From a virus (Duplodnaviria; Heunggongvirae; Uroviricota; Caudoviricetes), in the IMG/VR virus record IMGVR_UViG_3300034082_001974: DNA of 64,000 nt. One strand, written 5' to 3'. The first letter of the stretch is position 1. Every line of letters begins with the position of its first letter. The translations under genes and the position numbers were made by a program. Shown here piece by piece: positions 2,381 through 64,000 of this stretch. The notes beneath the pieces are model-generated. The model did no database searches and had not been told where the DNA came from. It saw nothing but the letters and a program-made list of their open reading frames with translations.

Positions 2381-2407
2381 GAGATTTCAGTGGTGTGTAA
2401 CAAATGT

Positions 2408-2437
2408 AATATAAGGGTTCTATGGGGGATCTGTCAA
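2408..2437 (-). promoter_or_regulatory. sigma70-like TTGACA-18-TATATT; -35 sits in loop of GGGGG/CCCCC hairpin
   Basis: seen directly upstream of 2180..2380. Confidence 0.35.
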
Positions 2438-2466
2438 CCCCCAGAACCATTAGCAATCCTTATGTG

Positions 2467-2628
2467 TCAGACACCAAAATCCTCTACATATGACTCTACA
2501 CTCTCAGCAGGTTCTAGGTCAAATACTTTCTCAAAATCAATATCCTTGGCATTAAAATCTGAAAATACATTAAACTCCAAGGTTACACGAACCTTTTTCT
2601 TTTGTGCTTGAAGAAATGCAACTGACAT
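2467..2628 (-). CDS. hypothetical acidic protein (start trimmed to MSVAFLQ...)
   Basis: consensus TTGACA-17-TATAGT promoter at 2644-2672 and GGAG RBS place start at 2628. Confidence 0.45.
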   Translation of the reverse strand: MSVAFLQAQKKKVRVTLEFNVFSDFNAKDIDFEKVFDLEPAESVESYVEDFGV

Positions 2629-2643
2629 AAGAACTCCGTGTGG

Positions 2644-2672
2644 TTGATCTGAAGGTACTATACGATGATATG
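2644..2672 (-). promoter_or_regulatory. sigma70-like promoter TTGACA-17-TATAGT on minus strand
   Basis: seen directly; GGAG RBS and ATG at 2628 downstream. Confidence 0.5.
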
Positions 2673-2786
2673 AGAGGTTTGTCAAGGGTGTTGAGAGTAT
2701 GTATGTGAGTCTCATGAGAAATGTGAGTCTTATGAGGTTTTATGTGTATTTTTATGTCCGGGGTCTGGGAAAAATATCGGGCCTGC

Positions 2787-2815
2787 TTGACAAAAATGCC
2801 CTCGTGTGATATAAT
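2787..2815 (+). promoter_or_regulatory. consensus sigma70 promoter TTGACA-17-TATAAT on plus strand
   Basis: perfect hexamers and 17-nt spacer; points toward repeat arrays and HNH gene. Confidence 0.55.
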
Positions 2816-2892
2816 TACTTCCAAGATCACAAGGATCTGAAGGGTATAAGTTACATAAGTTACATAATAATCTGATGAATCTGATGTATTTT

Positions 2893-3050
2893 AAGAACAT
2901 AAGAACCATAATATACACATAAGATTACATAAGAACCATAAGACTACATAAGAACCATAAGATTACATAAGAACCATAAGACTACATAAGAACCATAAGA
3001 TTACATAAGAACCATAAGACTACATAAGAACCATAAGATTACATAAGAAT
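2893..3050. repeat. tandem array of 19-bp AAGAACCATAAGAYTACAT (6 perfect + degenerate copies; 38-bp super-period)
   Basis: direct repeats read in sequence. Confidence 0.9.
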
Positions 3051-3053
3051 AAA

Positions 3054-3116
3054 GTTTTCCACAAGTATAAAGAGTTTTCCACAAGTATAAAGAGTTTTCC
3101 ACAGGTTTTCCACAAC
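3054..3116. repeat. tandem 20-bp GTTTTCCACAAGTATAAAGA x2 plus two partial copies
   Basis: direct repeats read in sequence. Confidence 0.85.
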
Positions 3117-3180
3117 TACAGATTGTCTCCATTTACTACCCTACTTTCACCTATATACAAAAAAGTATGAGAAAATCAAT

Positions 3181-3732
3181 ATGTTTCAGAAGGTCACAAA
3201 GAAGATCTCTGATATTGAAGGTATGGAAAACTATAAGTTCTATTATGTTACCACCGATGGAGAGATCTATTCAACCAAATATAAGAAACCAAGAAGATTA
3301 AAGGAACAATGGTCTAATGGTAATCAATCTTATAGAGTAGTTCAACTCTCTAATGGCAAGGGTAATCACAGATCCTTTTATATTCATCGTATTGTTGTAG
3401 AAGCATGGTTACCAAATCCAACAGACTCATGGGGTATTCAACATATTGACGGAAATGTTGAAAATAATGCTCTATCCAACCTAAGATGGATTGGTAGAAA
3501 AAAGGAAAGAGATGGTCTAATAGGTTTAGATACTGATCAATTAGAATTAAGTAAAGATCTAAGTGATTATATTCGTTTAGTACACGATGCTGCAATTAGA
3601 AAAAACATTCCTGTTCCTGATACATATGAGTTCTTTCATAAAATCTTAAATGAATCATTGAATGAGTACATCAATCGTTATGGTCTCAAGAAGACAATGT
3701 ACCAGATAGAGAATTCAAAAGAAACAATCTAA
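3181..3732 (+). CDS. HNH homing endonuclease (HNH_3-type, ...HIDGNVENNALSNLRW...)
   Basis: HNH motif H-x-D-G-N...N-x-x-L-x-N-L-R; only plus-strand gene; downstream of consensus sigma70 promoter 2787-2815; flanked by repeat arrays; 3' end overlaps convergent methyltransferase ORF. Confidence 0.75.
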   Translation: MFQKVTKKISDIEGMENYKFYYVTTDGEIYSTKYKKPRRLKEQWSNGNQSYRVVQLSNGKGNHRSFYIHRIVVEAWLPNPTDSWGIQHIDGNVENNALSNLRWIGRKKERDGLIGLDTDQLELSKDLSDYIRLVHDAAIRKNIPVPDTYEFFHKILNESLNEYINRYGLKKTMYQIENSKETI

Positions 3733-4119
3733 CGTAACTTGAGAAGGTGTTCCATCAAACTTATAATGATACGTAAGAGCATCTGCTTTTACATAATGAT
3801 CATGATTTACTGATACACCAAGAAGATCACACAATTCCTTATGATTATCTTCTTGATATTCAATTGCATATAACATATGATTCAGAACATGCTCTTCTGA
3901 ATGATACAAACATAAAAGTTCCTTAAGACGCACAATGAAATTACCGGAACCAGCACACAGATCTAAAAACTTGAAATTTGGATTCTTGAGTGTTTCTACT
4001 GGTATTTCTGCTAACATCTCATTGACCAATACTGATGGAGTAAAGACTTCACCAGTATTATCAATTCGGTCTTGAGTTCTTTCAAGACTTGAACCTACAT
4101 TCTTAACCTTTTTTGACAT
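3715..4119 (-). CDS. DNA methyltransferase fragment, C-terminal part (motif X EVFTP, motif I LDLCAGSGNF) of a split beta-class N6A/N4C MTase
   Basis: FTP and FxGxG motifs; begins in +1 frame overlapping end of 4103..4942 at an A6 run. Confidence 0.65.
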   Translation of the reverse strand: MSKKVKNVGSSLERTQDRIDNTGEVFTPSVLVNEMLAEIPVETLKNPNFKFLDLCAGSGNFIVRLKELLCLYHSEEHVLNHMLYAIEYQEDNHKELCDLLGVSVNHDHYVKADALTYHYKFDGTPSQVTLDCFF

Positions 4120-4942
4120 AATACGGATTTGGTATAACTTTTAACATATCACAAACTGTACGGAATCCTCCACTAATTTGACATGCCCTACGATAATTAT
4201 CTGCCTCACTTGAATTCAAATATTCAATAATATCATCTGCTTCTTCTTTTGAATCCACTAAAATGTACATACAATTATCAGACACACCATATTGCCCGTC
4301 ATCATAATACGGATAGAAGTTTCCACCTTCACGGAACACAACCTTTTTCTTTGTTGCTTCTGGTTCTTCTGTCTTATTATAGCATAGATTCAGTTCTCCT
4401 GATGCGGTAGTCTTGTTGATACTCACAAATGCACCATCAAAGGCAATCATTGGATCATAAGTCTTTGAACGGCAAATGTGTCGCCATGCTCTTCCAATTT
4501 GTGGGTTCAGACGAGGAATTGAGGAATCAGTATTCAGGTATTTCTGAAGTAAGTCGAGACTATGATTGGGAATAAAGGGATAGTCACGTAAATCAACATC
4601 AGTCCAGTCTTCAGATTCTTCAAAACGCACCTGTGTCGGTCCTGTACGGGGTGTCTTGTGAAGAACGTACCAGTCATAAGGTGTTCCTGCCTTAAAGGTC
4701 TTTTTACCCTCTACGGCGGAGTGAATGGAGAGTTTCTTTACCTGATTGTCAATTAGCAGATGGCGATGTGGATTATTTGGTTTTCTTAGGCCAGGTGGAT
4801 GTACGGAAATCATCAGACCATTATCTTTTGTCAGTTCATATTGAATCTGAGCAAAATCCCCATAGGTACTACTACCAGTATTATGAGAATCTAAAGAATA
4901 TGGTGGATTGGATATTGTTACATCAAATTGAATTGCGGTCAT
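4103..4942 (-). CDS. DNA methyltransferase fragment, N-terminal part (motif IV NPPY at residues 12-15) of a split beta-class MTase
   Basis: NPPY motif at N-terminus; ORF terminates 17 nt into next frame at GTCAAAAAAGG. Confidence 0.65.
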   Translation of the reverse strand: MTAIQFDVTISNPPYSLDSHNTGSSTYGDFAQIQYELTKDNGLMISVHPPGLRKPNNPHRHLLIDNQVKKLSIHSAVEGKKTFKAGTPYDWYVLHKTPRTGPTQVRFEESEDWTDVDLRDYPFIPNHSLDLLQKYLNTDSSIPRLNPQIGRAWRHICRSKTYDPMIAFDGAFVSINKTTASGELNLCYNKTEEPEATKKKVVFREGGNFYPYYDDGQYGVSDNCMYILVDSKEEADDIIEYLNSSEADNYRRACQISGGFRTVCDMLKVIPNPYYVKKG

Positions 4943-4991: not shown

Positions 4992-5666
4992 TCAGGTGTC
5001 CATGAAGGACAAAATACTTTCACTTTGCCCATAGATTCTGTTTTTAGTCATTTCAAAATATTCTGTGTTCATTTCAATTCCAATGAAGTTTCTACCACAC
5101 TGCTTAGCAGCAACACCAATCGCACCACTCCCCATACAGGGATCCAATACTGTATCACCAACATTTGAACTTGCCTCAATCAACCTTGACATAAGTTTCA
5201 CTGGTTTAGGTGTGGGGTGATCCTTGTAGTGTTCAATAGAATTACGCCATACGGCAGACTTACAATGCTCATTAAACACCGCTCCAGACTTCTTGGCAAA
5301 TACACAATTTTCAATGCTCGATAACCAGATATGTTGCCCATTCATCGGAGAAGGATTAGTTTTTTCCCATATACAGTGCCTTACAGATAATCCATGATTT
5401 ATCAGGTGACTGCGAATATGTGAAACTTGAACCGAACCACAGAAAATATAAATGCTTCCAGAAGTCACACGAACAACTTCATCGATAAAGTCATCCAGTG
5501 GAAATGTAATAATATCTGCATGACTCTTATCGAGGTTTCTTAATCCACCACTTTTACGATTTACCTCATCATATGGTATATCCGTAAGAGTAAGAGAAAT
5601 GCTCCCGTCAGCAAGTGATGGGAGCACATTCATACAGTCTTCATTGTATAATTTTACATTATTCAT
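4992..5666 (-). CDS. beta-class N6-adenine/N4-cytosine DNA methyltransferase (pfam01555-like; DIPY ... VLDPCMGSGAIG)
   Basis: motif IV DIPY near N-term, motif I FxGxG near C-term, IGIE tail. Confidence 0.8.
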   Translation of the reverse strand: MNNVKLYNEDCMNVLPSLADGSISLTLTDIPYDEVNRKSGGLRNLDKSHADIITFPLDDFIDEVVRVTSGSIYIFCGSVQVSHIRSHLINHGLSVRHCIWEKTNPSPMNGQHIWLSSIENCVFAKKSGAVFNEHCKSAVWRNSIEHYKDHPTPKPVKLMSRLIEASSNVGDTVLDPCMGSGAIGVAAKQCGRNFIGIEMNTEYFEMTKNRIYGQSESILSFMDT

Positions 5667-16485: not shown

Positions 16486-17157
16486 TTATTCTAATCTTTT
16501 TCTTTTGGAAGTATCAATACCTTTTGCTTTTTGATACTTTGTTAGATTTCCCGCATTAGTTATAAATCCAGTTTCAAGGCATTCCCATCGTTGTGCGGCA
16601 ACTTTTTTTCCAGTTTCACTTAATTGCTCTGTTGTAAGTCTGTGAATACCTATTTTTAGTTTTCTTCTCGTTAGCAAACTTTGTCTTGCTGTTTTTTGTC
16701 GTTGTTCTTTGGTTAAACCACAAATACCAACACCAAGTTCTTTTACTTTTGCTCCACCTTTTTTTGCATTTTCTATTGTTTCTTCTTTTGTAAGTGAGTG
16801 AATACCAAGTTTCAATTCAGTTATTTTTTGACCTCCTTTTCTTCCTGCTATTCTTGCTTGTTTTATTGATATTGTTCCCGCACAACTTTCATTTAGACAC
16901 CAGTTATCAGTATTATAAACTGGTTTTATCAATCTTTGTTCTACTTTATTTGCTTCTATCCAACTTTCATCAGTAAAAGAAAATACTTCCAATATTTGTT
17001 TCTTTGGAGTATAAAGTTCCCAGCACCATTTATGAGTTTCAGGAGAACCCCAATACTCCTCATCAAATCTTTTTTCCTTATGAACTCCATAATAGTAATA
17101 TGGAACTTCTTCAAATGTGATTTTATACAAGTATATTCTTGGACTATAAGAAGTCAT
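16486..17157 (-). CDS. GIY-YIG homing endonuclease with NUMOD3-like repeats
   Basis: N-terminal RIYLYKITFEEVPYYYYGVHK (GIY...YIG-like); repeated GIHSLTKEE/GICGLTKEQ/GIHRLTTEQ modules; own terminator hairpin upstream; paralog at 37309..38106. Confidence 0.65.
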   Translation of the reverse strand: MTSYSPRIYLYKITFEEVPYYYYGVHKEKRFDEEYWGSPETHKWCWELYTPKKQILEVFSFTDESWIEANKVEQRLIKPVYNTDNWCLNESCAGTISIKQARIAGRKGGQKITELKLGIHSLTKEETIENAKKGGAKVKELGVGICGLTKEQRQKTARQSLLTRRKLKIGIHRLTTEQLSETGKKVAAQRWECLETGFITNAGNLTKYQKAKGIDTSKRKRLE

Positions 17158-37308: not shown

Positions 37309-38106
37309 TTATGACATTCGTATTCTTTTAGAAGTATCTATACCTCTTTTGTTTTGATACCGGGTAAGTGGTCCTGATGTTGATACATATCCAGTTTCAA
37401 GGCACATCCATTTTTGTGAGTTTGTTATTTTACTACCTATTTTACCACCTATTTTACCATTTTCAATTGTTTGTTCTGCAGTTAATCCAAAAATTCCTAC
37501 ACCAAGTTCTTTTGTTTTTTTACCACCCTTTTTATTATATTTTTTACCATTTTCCATTCTTTGTTCTGGGGTAAATCCGCATATTCCTATACCAAGTTCC
37601 TTTGCTTTTTTACCAGCTTTTTTACCATCTTCCGTCATTTGTTCTTTTGTTCTTCCACAAATCCCTGTTTTATTTTCCTTATGTTTTTGTCCTGATATTT
37701 TCCCACCTTTTTTACCATCTTTGGTCATTTGTTCTTTTGTTCTTCCGTGAACTCCTATACCAAGTTCTTTTGTTTTTTTACCAGTTATTTTACCTGAATT
37801 TCTACAAATTTCTAAAGAAACCTTACCACCACAATTTTTATTAAGACACCATTTATCAGTATTATAAAATGATTTAATCAATCTTGTTTCAACTTCTTGT
37901 GCTTTAATCCATCCTTCATCTGTATAAGAAAAGACTTCAAGTATTTGTTTCTTTGCTGTATAAAAATTCCAGCACCACTTATGAGTATATGGGGAACCCC
38001 AGTATTCCTCACCAAACTTCGTTTCCTTATGAACTCCATAGTAATAGTAAGGAACTTCCTCAAAAGTAATTTTGTATATGTAAATTCTTGGACTTTGTGA
38101 AGTCAT
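37309..38106 (-). CDS. GIY-YIG homing endonuclease with expanded NUMOD3-like repeats (paralog of 16486..17157)
   Basis: N-terminus 90% identical to first copy for ~100 aa; >=6 GI(G/C/H)G(R/L)TKEQ modules; same upstream hairpin. Confidence 0.65.
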   Translation of the reverse strand: MTSQSPRIYIYKITFEEVPYYYYGVHKETKFGEEYWGSPYTHKWCWNFYTAKKQILEVFSYTDEGWIKAQEVETRLIKSFYNTDKWCLNKNCGGKVSLEICRNSGKITGKKTKELGIGVHGRTKEQMTKDGKKGGKISGQKHKENKTGICGRTKEQMTEDGKKAGKKAKELGIGICGFTPEQRMENGKKYNKKGGKKTKELGVGIFGLTAEQTIENGKIGGKIGSKITNSQKWMCLETGYVSTSGPLTRYQNKRGIDTSKRIRMS

Positions 38107-44892: not shown

Positions 44893-45093
44893 TTAATTTA
44901 GTTTAGTTTGTGGATTAAGTAAAGTACGGCAATCCTCCTCTGGAAGCATACACATAGCGCAGGATGCAATTTGATAGACATCTTCTTTTGAAAGTCCGTC
45001 CAGTGTCATACAGGGTCCGTCTCCAAAGGCAATAGAAAAACTATAACCATCATCAGGGTGGCAGGAACCACAAGTTTGGATTTGTTTTTTCAT
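44893..45093 (-). CDS. hypothetical Cys-rich protein
   Basis: track ORF. Confidence 0.45.
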   Translation of the reverse strand: MKKQIQTCGSCHPDDGYSFSIAFGDGPCMTLDGLSKEDVYQIASCAMCMLPEEDCRTLLNPQTKLN

Positions 45094-45611
45094 TAAAACT
45101 CATTCATTCCAAGAGGTCCAGTTACTTTTTTAAGAAGAAAACTACCATCACCTCGATCTATCCATACTACCTCATCACCGGTTTTAAGATTTGCTTCCTC
45201 TAACAGGTCGTCAGGAAATTGAATATAATAGTCATCCACACCATTTTCAATTTTTCGCTCAATAGGAAGACGCCACTTGACTACCTTATCTGGTTTAGGT
45301 TCTTCTGGAGATAGTTTAGAAAGATATTCCATATCACTATGTCCCCAGGGTGGCATACAATCATCAATTTCTTGTTGCTTGACTTTACTTACAGTTTCTT
45401 TCCAGGCATCTTTAAACTTTGTATCAAATTCTTGAAGATAATACTGAAGATACTCATCTACAGCATACATAAGAGTTTCTGTTTTCTTTAAATTATGATT
45501 CTCAAGAGCATCTATTGCACTATCCAGAATCTCACGGGCACTACAGATTTTTGATGATACAGACTCAAGTTCGTTGAGTGAGTTCCACACCTTTTGATAA
45601 TCAAGAGTCAT
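45093..45611 (-). CDS. hypothetical protein with possible C-terminal AbrB/MazE-like swapped-hairpin segment
   Basis: C-terminus TGDEVVWIDRGDGSFLLKKV. Confidence 0.5.
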   Translation of the reverse strand: MTLDYQKVWNSLNELESVSSKICSAREILDSAIDALENHNLKKTETLMYAVDEYLQYYLQEFDTKFKDAWKETVSKVKQQEIDDCMPPWGHSDMEYLSKLSPEEPKPDKVVKWRLPIERKIENGVDDYYIQFPDDLLEEANLKTGDEVVWIDRGDGSFLLKKVTGPLGMNEF

Positions 45612-63090: not shown

Positions 63091-64000
63091 TTAGGGGTCA
63101 GGTTGATATTGAATTGCTATAGTATGATAACCTCCAGCAATAGATTTCCAATTGTTACCACCAAGTAGTGTAGTGACTGGAGTATTTCTTTGTGTAATAT
63201 CATTGACTCCTAATTGTCCATAAACATTACGACCCCAAGTCCATAGAGTTCCATCAGTCTTAATTGCTATGGTATGAAAAAATCCACTCGCAATAGATTT
63301 CCAATTGTTACCACCAAGTAGTGTGGTGACTGGAGTGCTTCTATGTGTGGTATCATTTACACCTAATGCTCCATAAGAATTACGACCCCAAGTCCATAGA
63401 GTTCCATCAGTCTTAATTGCTATGGTATGAAAACCTTTACCAGCAATAGATTTCCAATTGGTTCCACCAAGTAGTGTGGTGACTGGAGTGCTTCTAGATG
63501 TAGTATTATTTACACCTAGTTGTCCATTATCATTACTACCCCAATTCCATAAAGTCCCATCAGTATTAAGTGCTATAGTATGATAATATCCACCAGCAAT
63601 AGATTTCCAATTGGTTCCACCAAGTAGTGTGGTGACTGGAGTGCTTCTAGATGTAGTATTATTTACACCTAGTTGTCCATTATCATTATAACCCCAAGAC
63701 CATAGAGTTCCATCAGTCTTAAGTGCTATGGTATGATAAAATCCACCAGTAATAGATTTCCAATTGTTACCACCAAGTAGTGTAGTGACTGGAGTGCTTC
63801 TTCGTGTAGTATCATTTACACCTAGTTGTCCAAAAAGATTAGAACCCCAAGACCATAGAGTTCCATCAGTCTTAAGTGCTATCGTATGATAACCTCCACA
63901 AGCAATAGATTTCCAATTGTTACCACCAAGTAGCGTAGTGACTGGAGTGCTTCTATGTGTATTATCATTTACACCTAGTTGTACACTATTATTACCACCC
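63091..64000 (-). CDS. RCC1-repeat (beta-propeller) protein, C-terminal ~300 aa (N-terminus beyond window end)
   Basis: >=5 tandem ~52-aa blades HT(I/L)A(L/I)KTDGTLW(S/T)WG.N..GQLGVN..T.RSTPVTTLLGG.NWKSIA; stop ~63091. Confidence 0.75.
   Translation of the reverse strand, partial: GGNNSVQLGVNDNTHRSTPVTTLLGGNNWKSIACGGYHTIALKTDGTLWSWGSNLFGQLGVNDTTRRSTPVTTLLGGNNWKSITGGFYHTIALKTDGTLWSWGYNDNGQLGVNNTTSRSTPVTTLLGGTNWKSIAGGYYHTIALNTDGTLWNWGSNDNGQLGVNNTTSRSTPVTTLLGGTNWKSIAGKGFHTIAIKTDGTLWTWGRNSYGALGVNDTTHRSTPVTTLLGGNNWKSIASGFFHTIAIKTDGTLWTWGRNVYGQLGVNDITQRNTPVTTLLGGNNWKSIAGGYHTIAIQYQPDP

Follow-up and report, generated by a model that had tools for sequence, protein, structure and literature searches.

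Introduction

What does a gene-free stretch of about 550 bp, crowded with promoters and direct repeats, do in the genome of a T4-like cyanophage? The question is raised by positions 2629-3180 of a 64,000-nt stretch of the IMG/VR virus record IMGVR_UViG_3300034082_001974, and this whole stretch is called the window below. An original prediction, made from the letters alone, had described positions 2405-3180 as non-coding and as a candidate origin or early control region. The non-coding status holds for 2629-3180, while 2405-2628 contains a 53-aa gene (phrog_12516). Here we report that the second repeat of the region is, judged by its sequence, a DnaA-box cluster of cyanobacterial type, a point that the original prediction had missed, and that positions 2629-3180 are, going by their layout, this phage's copy of an intergenic module of T4-like cyanophages (Kyanoviridae). 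We tentatively favour the reading, which we hold to be somewhat short of probable, that 2629-3180 may serve as an origin of early replication, with transcription as its activator and with help from host DnaA.

Results

The second repeat is a putative DnaA-box cluster beside easily melted DNA

Three or four copies of a 20-bp repeat had been predicted. Two full 20-bp copies are indeed present, the other two being 10-11 bp long, and the sequence that all of them share, GTTTTCCACA, occurs exactly four times, at 3054, 3074, 3094 and 3105 (span 3054-3114). The invariant core of this second repeat, TTTTCCACA, fits the DnaA-box consensus TTWTNCACA and matches what is reported as the 'species-specific' DnaA box in most cyanobacteria (PMC4674748, PMC6323995). 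All four putative boxes lie on one strand with start-to-start spacings of 20, 20 and 11 bp, and they account, within 60 bp, for four of the six exact TTTTCCACA found in the 64 kb; the 80 bp after the last box are 69% A+T.

Protein matches identify the window as part of a T4-type cyanomyovirus that is kin to Synechococcus phages, Synechococcus myoviruses giving the best matches: its helicase shares 48.5% identity with the S-SRM01 helicase, its RnlA shares 59% with those of phages B3 and B23, and further proteins match S-ShM2, S-RIM14 and ACG-2014d. On account of these matches the host is probably a picocyanobacterium, perhaps a freshwater one, S-SRM01 and B3/B23 being freshwater Synechococcus phages. 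A nucleotide search of the module region against INPHARED gave zero matches and the exact 19-mer array described below gave none in IMG/VR, so that relatives were reached through flanking proteins, together with the tandem-box pattern, among the environmental contigs of IMG/VR. The comparison covers 12 loci, namely the window and those labelled L001, L011, L090-L093, L131, L141, L169, L178 and L210; in close relatives the flanking early genes are syntenic.

DnaA boxes are present in 11 of the 12 related modules, with one to four per module. L001, L091, L169 and L178 all show the spacing of 20-21 and then 11 bp, with spacer sequences that differ, and 10 of the 12 loci retain the terminal 11-bp pair. 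Since the boxes themselves were picked by pattern, their per-position conservation is circular at positions 1-8, and it is the conserved spacing with divergent spacers that provides non-circular evidence. The pair TTTTCCACA-NN-TTTTCCACA also occurs in at least 120 bacterial genome contigs from many phyla, 26 of the 80 listed being cyanobacterial. At a Thermosynechococcus locus a GC cluster, CTACTACTACTA and AT-rich DNA come after the 11-bp pair, in the layout of a classical origin core. In the phage modules the last box is followed by only one or two CTA triplets (A CTA CAG in the window, A CTA CTA ATT in L093).

In order to compare DNA stability, nearest-neighbour energies were calculated for 50-mers over 2.5 kb on either side of each module. 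The least stable 50-mer falls inside the module in 11 of the 12 loci, lying 17-79 bp after the last box in seven relatives and within the array in four loci, including the window (2844-2893). An adjacent AT-rich unwinding element of the oriC type is present in terms of predicted stability, and the perfect promoter described below reads into the least stable DNA nearby, as at origins of the oriF/oriG type. That the second repeat consists of putative DnaA boxes next to the least stable DNA strengthens the idea of an origin.

Box clusters of other kinds were also encountered. Larger TTTTCCACA clusters with boxes in both orientations and interleaved repeats occur in two groups of contigs, L111, L204, L206 and L211 (for example L111 3700-4200) and L098, L162 and L189 (for example L098 480-900); the repeats among these boxes include ATAACGAA units and CTTATAAG beside the boxes. 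These clusters look like origins of unrelated phages, and the open reading frames (ORFs) next to the L111 and L098 clusters gave no informative Pfam matches. Besides, the tandem TTTTCCACA probe hits unannotated DNA of the small gut microviruses MG945484.1, PQ006418.1 and MZ089777.1, with 10 matching places in the 5.2-kb genome of one of these.

A strong promoter reads into a phased repeat array

As originally predicted, the region has three sigma70-like promoters, one on the plus strand (12/12 in the promoter scan) and two on the minus strand (11/12 each). The plus-strand promoter is the only perfect match in the 64 kb, where 0.11 would be expected, and its transcript is predicted to start near 2822; each minus-strand promoter precedes one small minus-strand gene. 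Alignment of the 12 loci shows that the -35 hexamer, the spacing and the TGnTA of the strong promoter are kept throughout. The palindrome at the transcript start, partly conserved as AAGATCACA(A/T)A(A/G)GA in L001, L011 and L093, forms the only stable hairpin in the predicted fold of the leader. In the place of the upstream operator-like sites of the window, relatives have reverse CTTAT sites and ATCTCGWCGAGAT palindromes, and several of them have a reverse YATAAGA-type site inside the promoter spacer.

The claim that transcription leaves on the plus strand only here is plausible. All credible genes around the module are on the minus strand and the HNH endonuclease gene is on the plus strand; elsewhere in the window no plus-strand ORF of at least 100 aa has a PHROG match, and the longest of them overlaps a tiling of minus-strand ORFs.

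Downstream of the promoter, the predicted six exact 19-mers were recovered: ACATAAGAACCATAAGAYT is repeated at 2927-3040 with C and T alternating, and a degenerate seventh copy lies at 2897. Within the window this sequence is confined to the array (seven matches against 0.10 expected, a number reached by none of 100 shuffles), and the exact array is not found in IMG/VR and is private to this genome. The smaller duplications of the prediction are likewise in place, at 2846-2867 and 2869-2886. What persists between relatives is a 7-bp core, YATAAGA, while the length and sequence of the array unit change (19 bp in the window, 29 bp in L001, 21 bp in L011, other lengths in L131, L141 and L210). 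Across the 12 loci, the spacing of consecutive YATAAGA sites peaks at 9-11 and 19-22 bp; sites downstream of the promoter are mostly forward (90 against 18 reverse), sites upstream of it mostly reverse (36 against 19 forward). An unbiased k-mer comparison of modules with their flanks recovered exactly two motif families, ATAAGA/CATAAG, enriched 12-13-fold and present in all 12 loci, and CGAGAT palindromes, enriched up to 46-fold and present in nine of them.

Because the core is kept, the units vary, the spacing is helically phased and the orientation flips across the promoter, we read the arrays as protein sites; their behaviour would suit iterons for a DNA-binding protein and not a conserved RNA. 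Of the features of an iteron array, at least three direct repeats in helical phase are present, as six exact 19-mers, and binding of an initiator is putative only. The iteron-like character that was predicted is retained for the core, the phasing and the orientation, which fit predicted protein sites; the exact 19-mer array is not shared with relatives. In viral contigs YATAAGA occurs at 1.69 per kb near tandem boxes against 0.39, while near tandem boxes of bacterial genomes there is no enrichment (0.19 against 0.17 per kb). YATAAGA is thus a feature of phages, and its reading as a feature of host oriC was rejected. We also rejected an HLR1/RpaB-like reading of GTTACATAAGTTACATAA, since the spacing is 9 and not 10 bp and relatives do not have the TTACA part.

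Elsewhere in the window, 42 kb from the arrays, a 172-aa ORF at 45093-45611 on the minus strand shares 54% identity at its C terminus with a DSL-LC03 protein whose annotation is AbrB/MazE/SpoVT DNA-binding, and has a Pfam MazE_antitoxin match below the curated cutoff (E=3e-4); its product is the one candidate for the array-binding protein, and a speculative one.

Related loci follow one plan

Read along the direction of the strong promoter, the 12 loci share one plan. Small minus-strand ORFs with their own promoters come first, followed by upstream reverse-oriented TCTTATG, with ATCTCGWCGAGAT palindromes in nine loci. Next are the G-rich element and, after it, cTTGACa-17-TGnTA, whose spacer often contains TCTT(A/G)TG; the array of YATAAGA sites; one to four DnaA boxes (none in L011); an AT-rich stretch of 60-150 bp; and finally a variable plus-strand gene (HNH, GIY-YIG or a 60-aa zinc-ribbon ORF). 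The features of the window are collected in Table 1.

Table 1. Features in and around the intergenic module of the window. Promoter-scan values are given as n/12; TRF, Tandem Repeats Finder.
Feature	Positions	Strand	Basis and remarks
66-aa gene	2380-2180	-	ORF list; region conserved in L001, L090-L092
Sigma70-like promoter TTGACA-18-TATATT, before the 66-aa gene	2437-2408	-	Promoter scan, 11/12
53-aa early-type gene, phrog_12516	2467-2628	-	PHROG E=1e-17; homologous sequence in L001, L093
Sigma70-like promoter TTGACA-17-TATAGT, of the 53-aa gene	2685-2657	-	11/12; divergent from the plus-strand promoter
Upstream operator-like sites	2703-2752		ATGTGAGTCTYATGAG duplicated (direct repeat); inverted repeat relative to the downstream array
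10-bp palindrome TCTCATGAGA	2710-2719		Within the upstream operator-like sites
Reverse-oriented motif TCTTATG	2728-2734		Within the upstream operator-like sites
Conserved G-rich element directly before the -35 hexamer	2760-2786	+	Alignment of 12 modules
Strong sigma70 promoter TTGACA-17-TG-n-TATAAT	2787-2815	+	Promoter scan, 12/12; upstream TG
Perfect palindrome AGATCACAAGGATCT at the transcript start	2824-2838	+	Read from the sequence
About 18 forward YATAAG(A) sites, alternating 9/10-bp spacing	2845-3049	+	TRF, pattern search, site map
Repeat of 2.4 x 9 bp	2846-2867	+	TRF
Unrelated 9-bp duplication, AATCTGATG x 2	2869-2886	+	TRF
6.9 copies of period 19	2918-3049	+	TRF, score 243
Four perfect putative DnaA boxes TTTTCCACA	3055, 3075, 3095, 3106 (3055-3114)	+	Pattern searches
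AT-rich spacer with a conserved ATTGTCTCCA and a TATACAAAAAA element, before the HNH start codon	3115-3180	+	Sequence; A+T content and stability in relatives; L001, L093
HNH endonuclease gene, 183 aa	3181-3732	+	Pfam HNH_3; PHROG 959/59

Comparable modules lie in unannotated DNA of cultured cyanophages

A 32-nt tandem-box probe matched 91 INPHARED records, 83 of them Synechococcus or Prochlorococcus myoviruses and always in unannotated DNA, and a 171-nt probe from the S-RIM44 module matched 47 cyanophage records of many genera. Modules combining a promoter and DnaA boxes were found in unannotated intergenic DNA of the Kyanoviridae S-PM2, S-CAM1, S-RIM44, Syn1, S-CAM3 and DSL-LC03. In the first five, which are marine, about 60 nt, part of them a conserved AT-rich stretch, separate a TTGAC(A/T) promoter from two or three boxes downstream of it, spaced about 12 bp apart, and S-PM2 and S-CAM3 have an inverted box in addition; other repeat arrays lie upstream. 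Only a convergent gene end follows the boxes, so that the promoter of the marine modules serves no ORF. The lake phage DSL-LC03 has YATAAGA sites, four forward boxes and one inverted box. The box cluster is the only one within 1-50 kb of S-PM2 and within 50-100 kb of DSL-LC03. The 53-aa flanking gene is not homologous to the neighbours of the S-PM2 and Syn1 modules, and the orthology of freshwater and marine modules is accordingly a matter of anatomy only.

Two observations concern the marine loci themselves. The upstream arrays form long imperfect inverted repeats (2693-2803 in L334, the S-PM2 locus, 433-509 in L338 and 448-524 in L339), and these cause spurious miRNA-like Rfam hits on the marine modules, which we discarded. 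In NC_006820.1 (S-PM2), RefSeq tRNA features at 17.4-19.4 kb, within L334, overlie coding sequences and the DnaA-box module; they appear to be misplaced, since ARAGORN sees no tRNA in the 6-kb L334 locus.

The downstream gene is a predicted passenger

An HNH gene follows the module in nine of the 12 loci (the window and eight relatives). In L169 a GIY-YIG endonuclease (Pfam E=1e-8) comes after the boxes instead, and in L141 and L210 a 60-aa zinc-ribbon-like ORF. These replacements make the site downstream of the module look like a landing place for homing endonucleases, and the HNH gene itself is, by this comparison, a homing-endonuclease passenger outside the core of the module. Together with the marine phages, the promoter thus has no fixed gene: what lies downstream is an HNH gene, a GIY-YIG gene, the 60-aa ORF or a convergent gene end. 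In L131 an intrinsic terminator separates the boxes from the HNH gene. The HNH gene may have its own late promoter; the element TA(T/C)A(T/C)AAAAAA at 3157-3170, seen also in L001 and L090-L093 and placed 10-35 nt before the HNH start, resembles the T4-type late promoter TATAAATA.

The ORFs neighbouring the module encode small acidic proteins, the HNH endonuclease and methyltransferases. ORFs 3715-4119 and 4103-4942, both on the minus strand, overlap and match pieces of a DNA methyltransferase (the N-terminal part of N6_Mtase; phrog_3689); they may be a split or frameshifted methyltransferase, and they adjoin a complete N6_N4_Mtase gene at 4992-5666. The methyltransferase block is not present at the same position in L011. 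Farther away, a second homing-endonuclease-like gene (phrog_314, E=3e-8) lies at 16486-17157 on the minus strand. The strongest repeat that TRF finds in the window is a 153-bp tandem repeat of 5.7 copies at 63115-63982 (88% matches, score 1253), which reaches the window end, and nested 90-bp and 12-bp tandem repeats at 37426-37794 lie inside a 265-aa minus-strand ORF (37309-38106) without a PHROG match.

Discussion

We favour an origin because four things combine at this locus: an early promoter without fixed cargo, phased arrays, a pair of putative DnaA boxes and the weakest DNA. In the sequence of events that we propose, host RNA polymerase would fire the strong sigma70 promoter, which here points against the surrounding genes, and the untranslated, unstructured transcript would cross easily melted DNA that carries the phased YATAAGA array. 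A putative factor, probably specific to the phage, would bind the YATAAGA sites downstream of the promoter; it would also bind the reverse sites upstream and, in relatives, in the promoter spacer, and could in this way throttle the promoter. Host DnaA would assemble on the four head-to-tail TTTTCCACA boxes. Transcription, DnaA and the array factor would jointly melt the AT-rich DNA or keep an R-loop stable there, and the phage replisome would start from this opening, as at T4 oriF/oriG and oriE. A wider claim, that T4-like cyanophages recruit host DnaA to a dedicated early origin by means of a mimic of the oriC box pair, a promoter and a lineage-specific iteron factor, we consider doubtful.

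Several results weigh against an origin assisted by DnaA. T4-like phages have their own replisome with no known need for DnaA, and T4 replication is not known to use it. None of the neighbouring ORFs is a gene for an array-binding initiator. The L011 module has no box within one mismatch despite its promoter, arrays and HNH gene, and no clear DnaA-trio run follows the boxes of the phage modules, unlike CTACTACTACTA in Thermosynechococcus. The leader transcript is A/C-rich and not G-rich, so that R-loops are not especially favoured; its lack of structure (z=+1.6) is the one indirect point that would fit an R-loop primer. The arrangement also varies: the AT-rich stretch precedes the boxes in the marine phages, the DSL-LC03 module is codirectional with its neighbours, and the ACG-2014d boxes lie just upstream of the -35 of a promoter. 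Finally, a GC-skew switch had been proposed as a check on the original prediction, and no sign change occurs at the module in the window, where the skew is negative on both sides, nor within 4 kb either side in 12 relatives, nor in DSL-LC03 (50 kb each of DSL-LC03 and S-PM2 were covered). The missing inflection is weak evidence, because skew follows gene orientation in these genomes.

The missing inflection is equally what a regulatory boundary would predict, and the serious rival is indeed that the module acts as a DnaA-gated transcription control or insulator and not as an origin, which we judge unlikely on balance. DnaA bound to the boxes would block or modulate polymerase coming from the strong promoter and from convergent genes, an array-binding repressor would tune the divergent early promoters, and early transcription together with expression of the downstream gene would be tied to the DnaA state of the host. 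Such a boundary would account for the varying position of the boxes relative to promoters. In E. coli, RNA polymerase can be stopped by DnaA sitting on its boxes, and lambda pR is modulated by DnaA that binds downstream of it; here the boxes always lie between the promoter and the next gene or, in ACG-2014d, by the -35, a motif site sits in the promoter spacer, operator-like sites sit between the divergent promoters, and the L131 terminator comes right after the boxes. However, the gene after the module varies, is often a selfish endonuclease and is missing in some genomes, which makes selection for elaborate control hard to see. This rival also leaves unexplained why the least stable DNA is in the module and why the 11-bp pair spacing is shared with cyanobacterial and other bacterial loci.

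The boxes might instead titrate host DnaA, so that amplification of the phage would shut down initiation at the host origin, a decoy role that we find improbable. High-affinity box clusters do titrate DnaA in E. coli, and the perfect-consensus boxes are conserved across the family. A parallel is E. coli datA, a DnaA-titrating cluster of high-affinity boxes outside the chromosomal origin that works via IHF-dependent hydrolysis of DnaA-ATP; datA, however, has no built-in promoter or iteron array. A decoy would need neither the promoter nor the arrays nor the unstable DNA beside the boxes; only one to four boxes are present per genome, and L011 has none.

Alternatively the product could be the transcript itself, a non-coding RNA of about 300 nt without structure whose CAUAAGA repeats would sequester an RNA-binding protein or another RNA. 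A strong promoter without a fixed ORF and the L131 terminator after the boxes agree with this, as does the leader RNA of 359 nt, which is less structured than shuffled sequence (z=+1.6). By the same token a structured RNA or riboswitch was rejected, as 98 of 100 shuffles fold better than the leader, relatives do not share the array sequence and Rfam gives no match on the window at E<=1. The lack of an Rfam match and of conserved array units counts against an unstructured RNA too, and so do the reverse motif copies between two divergent promoters, which neither promoter transcribes, and the marine relatives, whose transcribed part has no array. We therefore regard it as quite improbable.

Two further explanations are very improbable. 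According to the first, the promoter and repeats form a mobile HNH cassette that travels with a homing endonuclease and serves it alone. The frequent HNH gene after the module would fit, but the module occurs without HNH in relatives: its arrays are present in L141, L210 and L169, where the 60-aa ORF or GIY-YIG takes the place of HNH, marine phages have promoter-plus-box modules with no endonuclease, and the flanking early genes are syntenic in close relatives; the arrays are hence not part of such a cassette, whereas membership in one had been named with the original prediction as fatal to it. According to the second, the module pauses entering DNA like the T5 injection stop signal. T4-like genomes are circularly permuted and headful-packaged, with no fixed sequence entering first, and this phage is T4-like by its RnlA and helicase homologues, so that a fixed entry-pause site is not expected, unlike in T5, whose genome has fixed ends and is transferred in two steps; also, the genes on either side of the module are alike in kind and orientation. 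In favour stand only the neighbours, small genes of early type that have sigma70 promoters of their own, and a composition like that published for the T5 signal in a lytic phage, where repeats, inverted repeats, palindromes and DnaA boxes are listed and small pre-early genes lie alongside (PMC13250531).

Returning to the module as a candidate origin, its parts can be set against known systems. Like a bacterial oriC core, it has head-to-tail TTTTCCACA at the 11-bp spacing seen at cyanobacterial genome loci and AT-rich, least stable DNA 3' of the boxes, the side on which the unwinding element of E. coli oriC lies relative to box R1. Unlike a bacterial oriC, it belongs to a lytic phage whose genome codes for a replisome, has only one to four boxes (in one orientation in the window), shows neither a convincing DnaA-trio run nor a skew inflection, and has built into it a strong promoter as well as a second repeat array that is specific to the phage. 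Among iteron origins, DnaA boxes accompany P1 oriR, RK2 oriV, pSC101 and R6K gamma, and lambda ori has four 19-bp iterons and is activated by transcription. The module resembles these in its DnaA boxes, its helically phased direct repeats of about 19-22 bp and its AT-rich region, and motif copies at its promoter suggest autoregulation. It differs from them in having no adjacent Rep-type or O-type initiator gene, the binding protein being only putative, and in a 7-bp core at 9-10-bp spacing whose architecture changes between close relatives.

The T4 origins come from a phage of the same type. According to a review that does not mention DnaA boxes (PMC3016281), T4 oriF and oriG each pair a promoter with an AT-rich unwinding element downstream of it, where an R-loop forms, and oriE requires an early promoter and has evenly spaced 12-nt iterons. 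The module shares with them the T4-type virus, a promoter that reads into easily melted DNA and evenly spaced direct repeats; its promoter is, as at oriE, of the early sigma70 type. Its repeat units and motif are unrelated in sequence to the T4 iterons. Cyanomyoviruses have neither motA nor asiA (PMC2984593), and in contrast to the MotA middle promoters of oriF/oriG the module promoter has a canonical -35 TTGACA. Altogether, we rate the module as an apparent origin or control region built of known parts in an unexpected host-virus setting. In the full-text literature on DnaA boxes in cyanophages, cyanomyoviruses or T4-like phages we found no description of it, most subscription journals lying outside the search.

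On where replication starts in cyanomyoviruses, a review gives only a skew-based prediction, of a single theta origin in Syn9 (PMC2984593). The module offers a concrete candidate site and names DnaA as a candidate host factor, for some of the most abundant viruses that infect the main phototrophs of marine and fresh water. If it is an origin, a T4-type virus would co-opt the bacterial initiator, which lies outside the T4 picture, and if it is a control element, a lytic phage would read the replication state of its host. Should host DnaA be recruited as proposed, phage DNA synthesis would depend on the state of DnaA in the host. Cyanobacterial replication is light-dependent, and the dependence on DnaA could for that reason provide a molecular explanation of why the replication of cyanophages depends on light.

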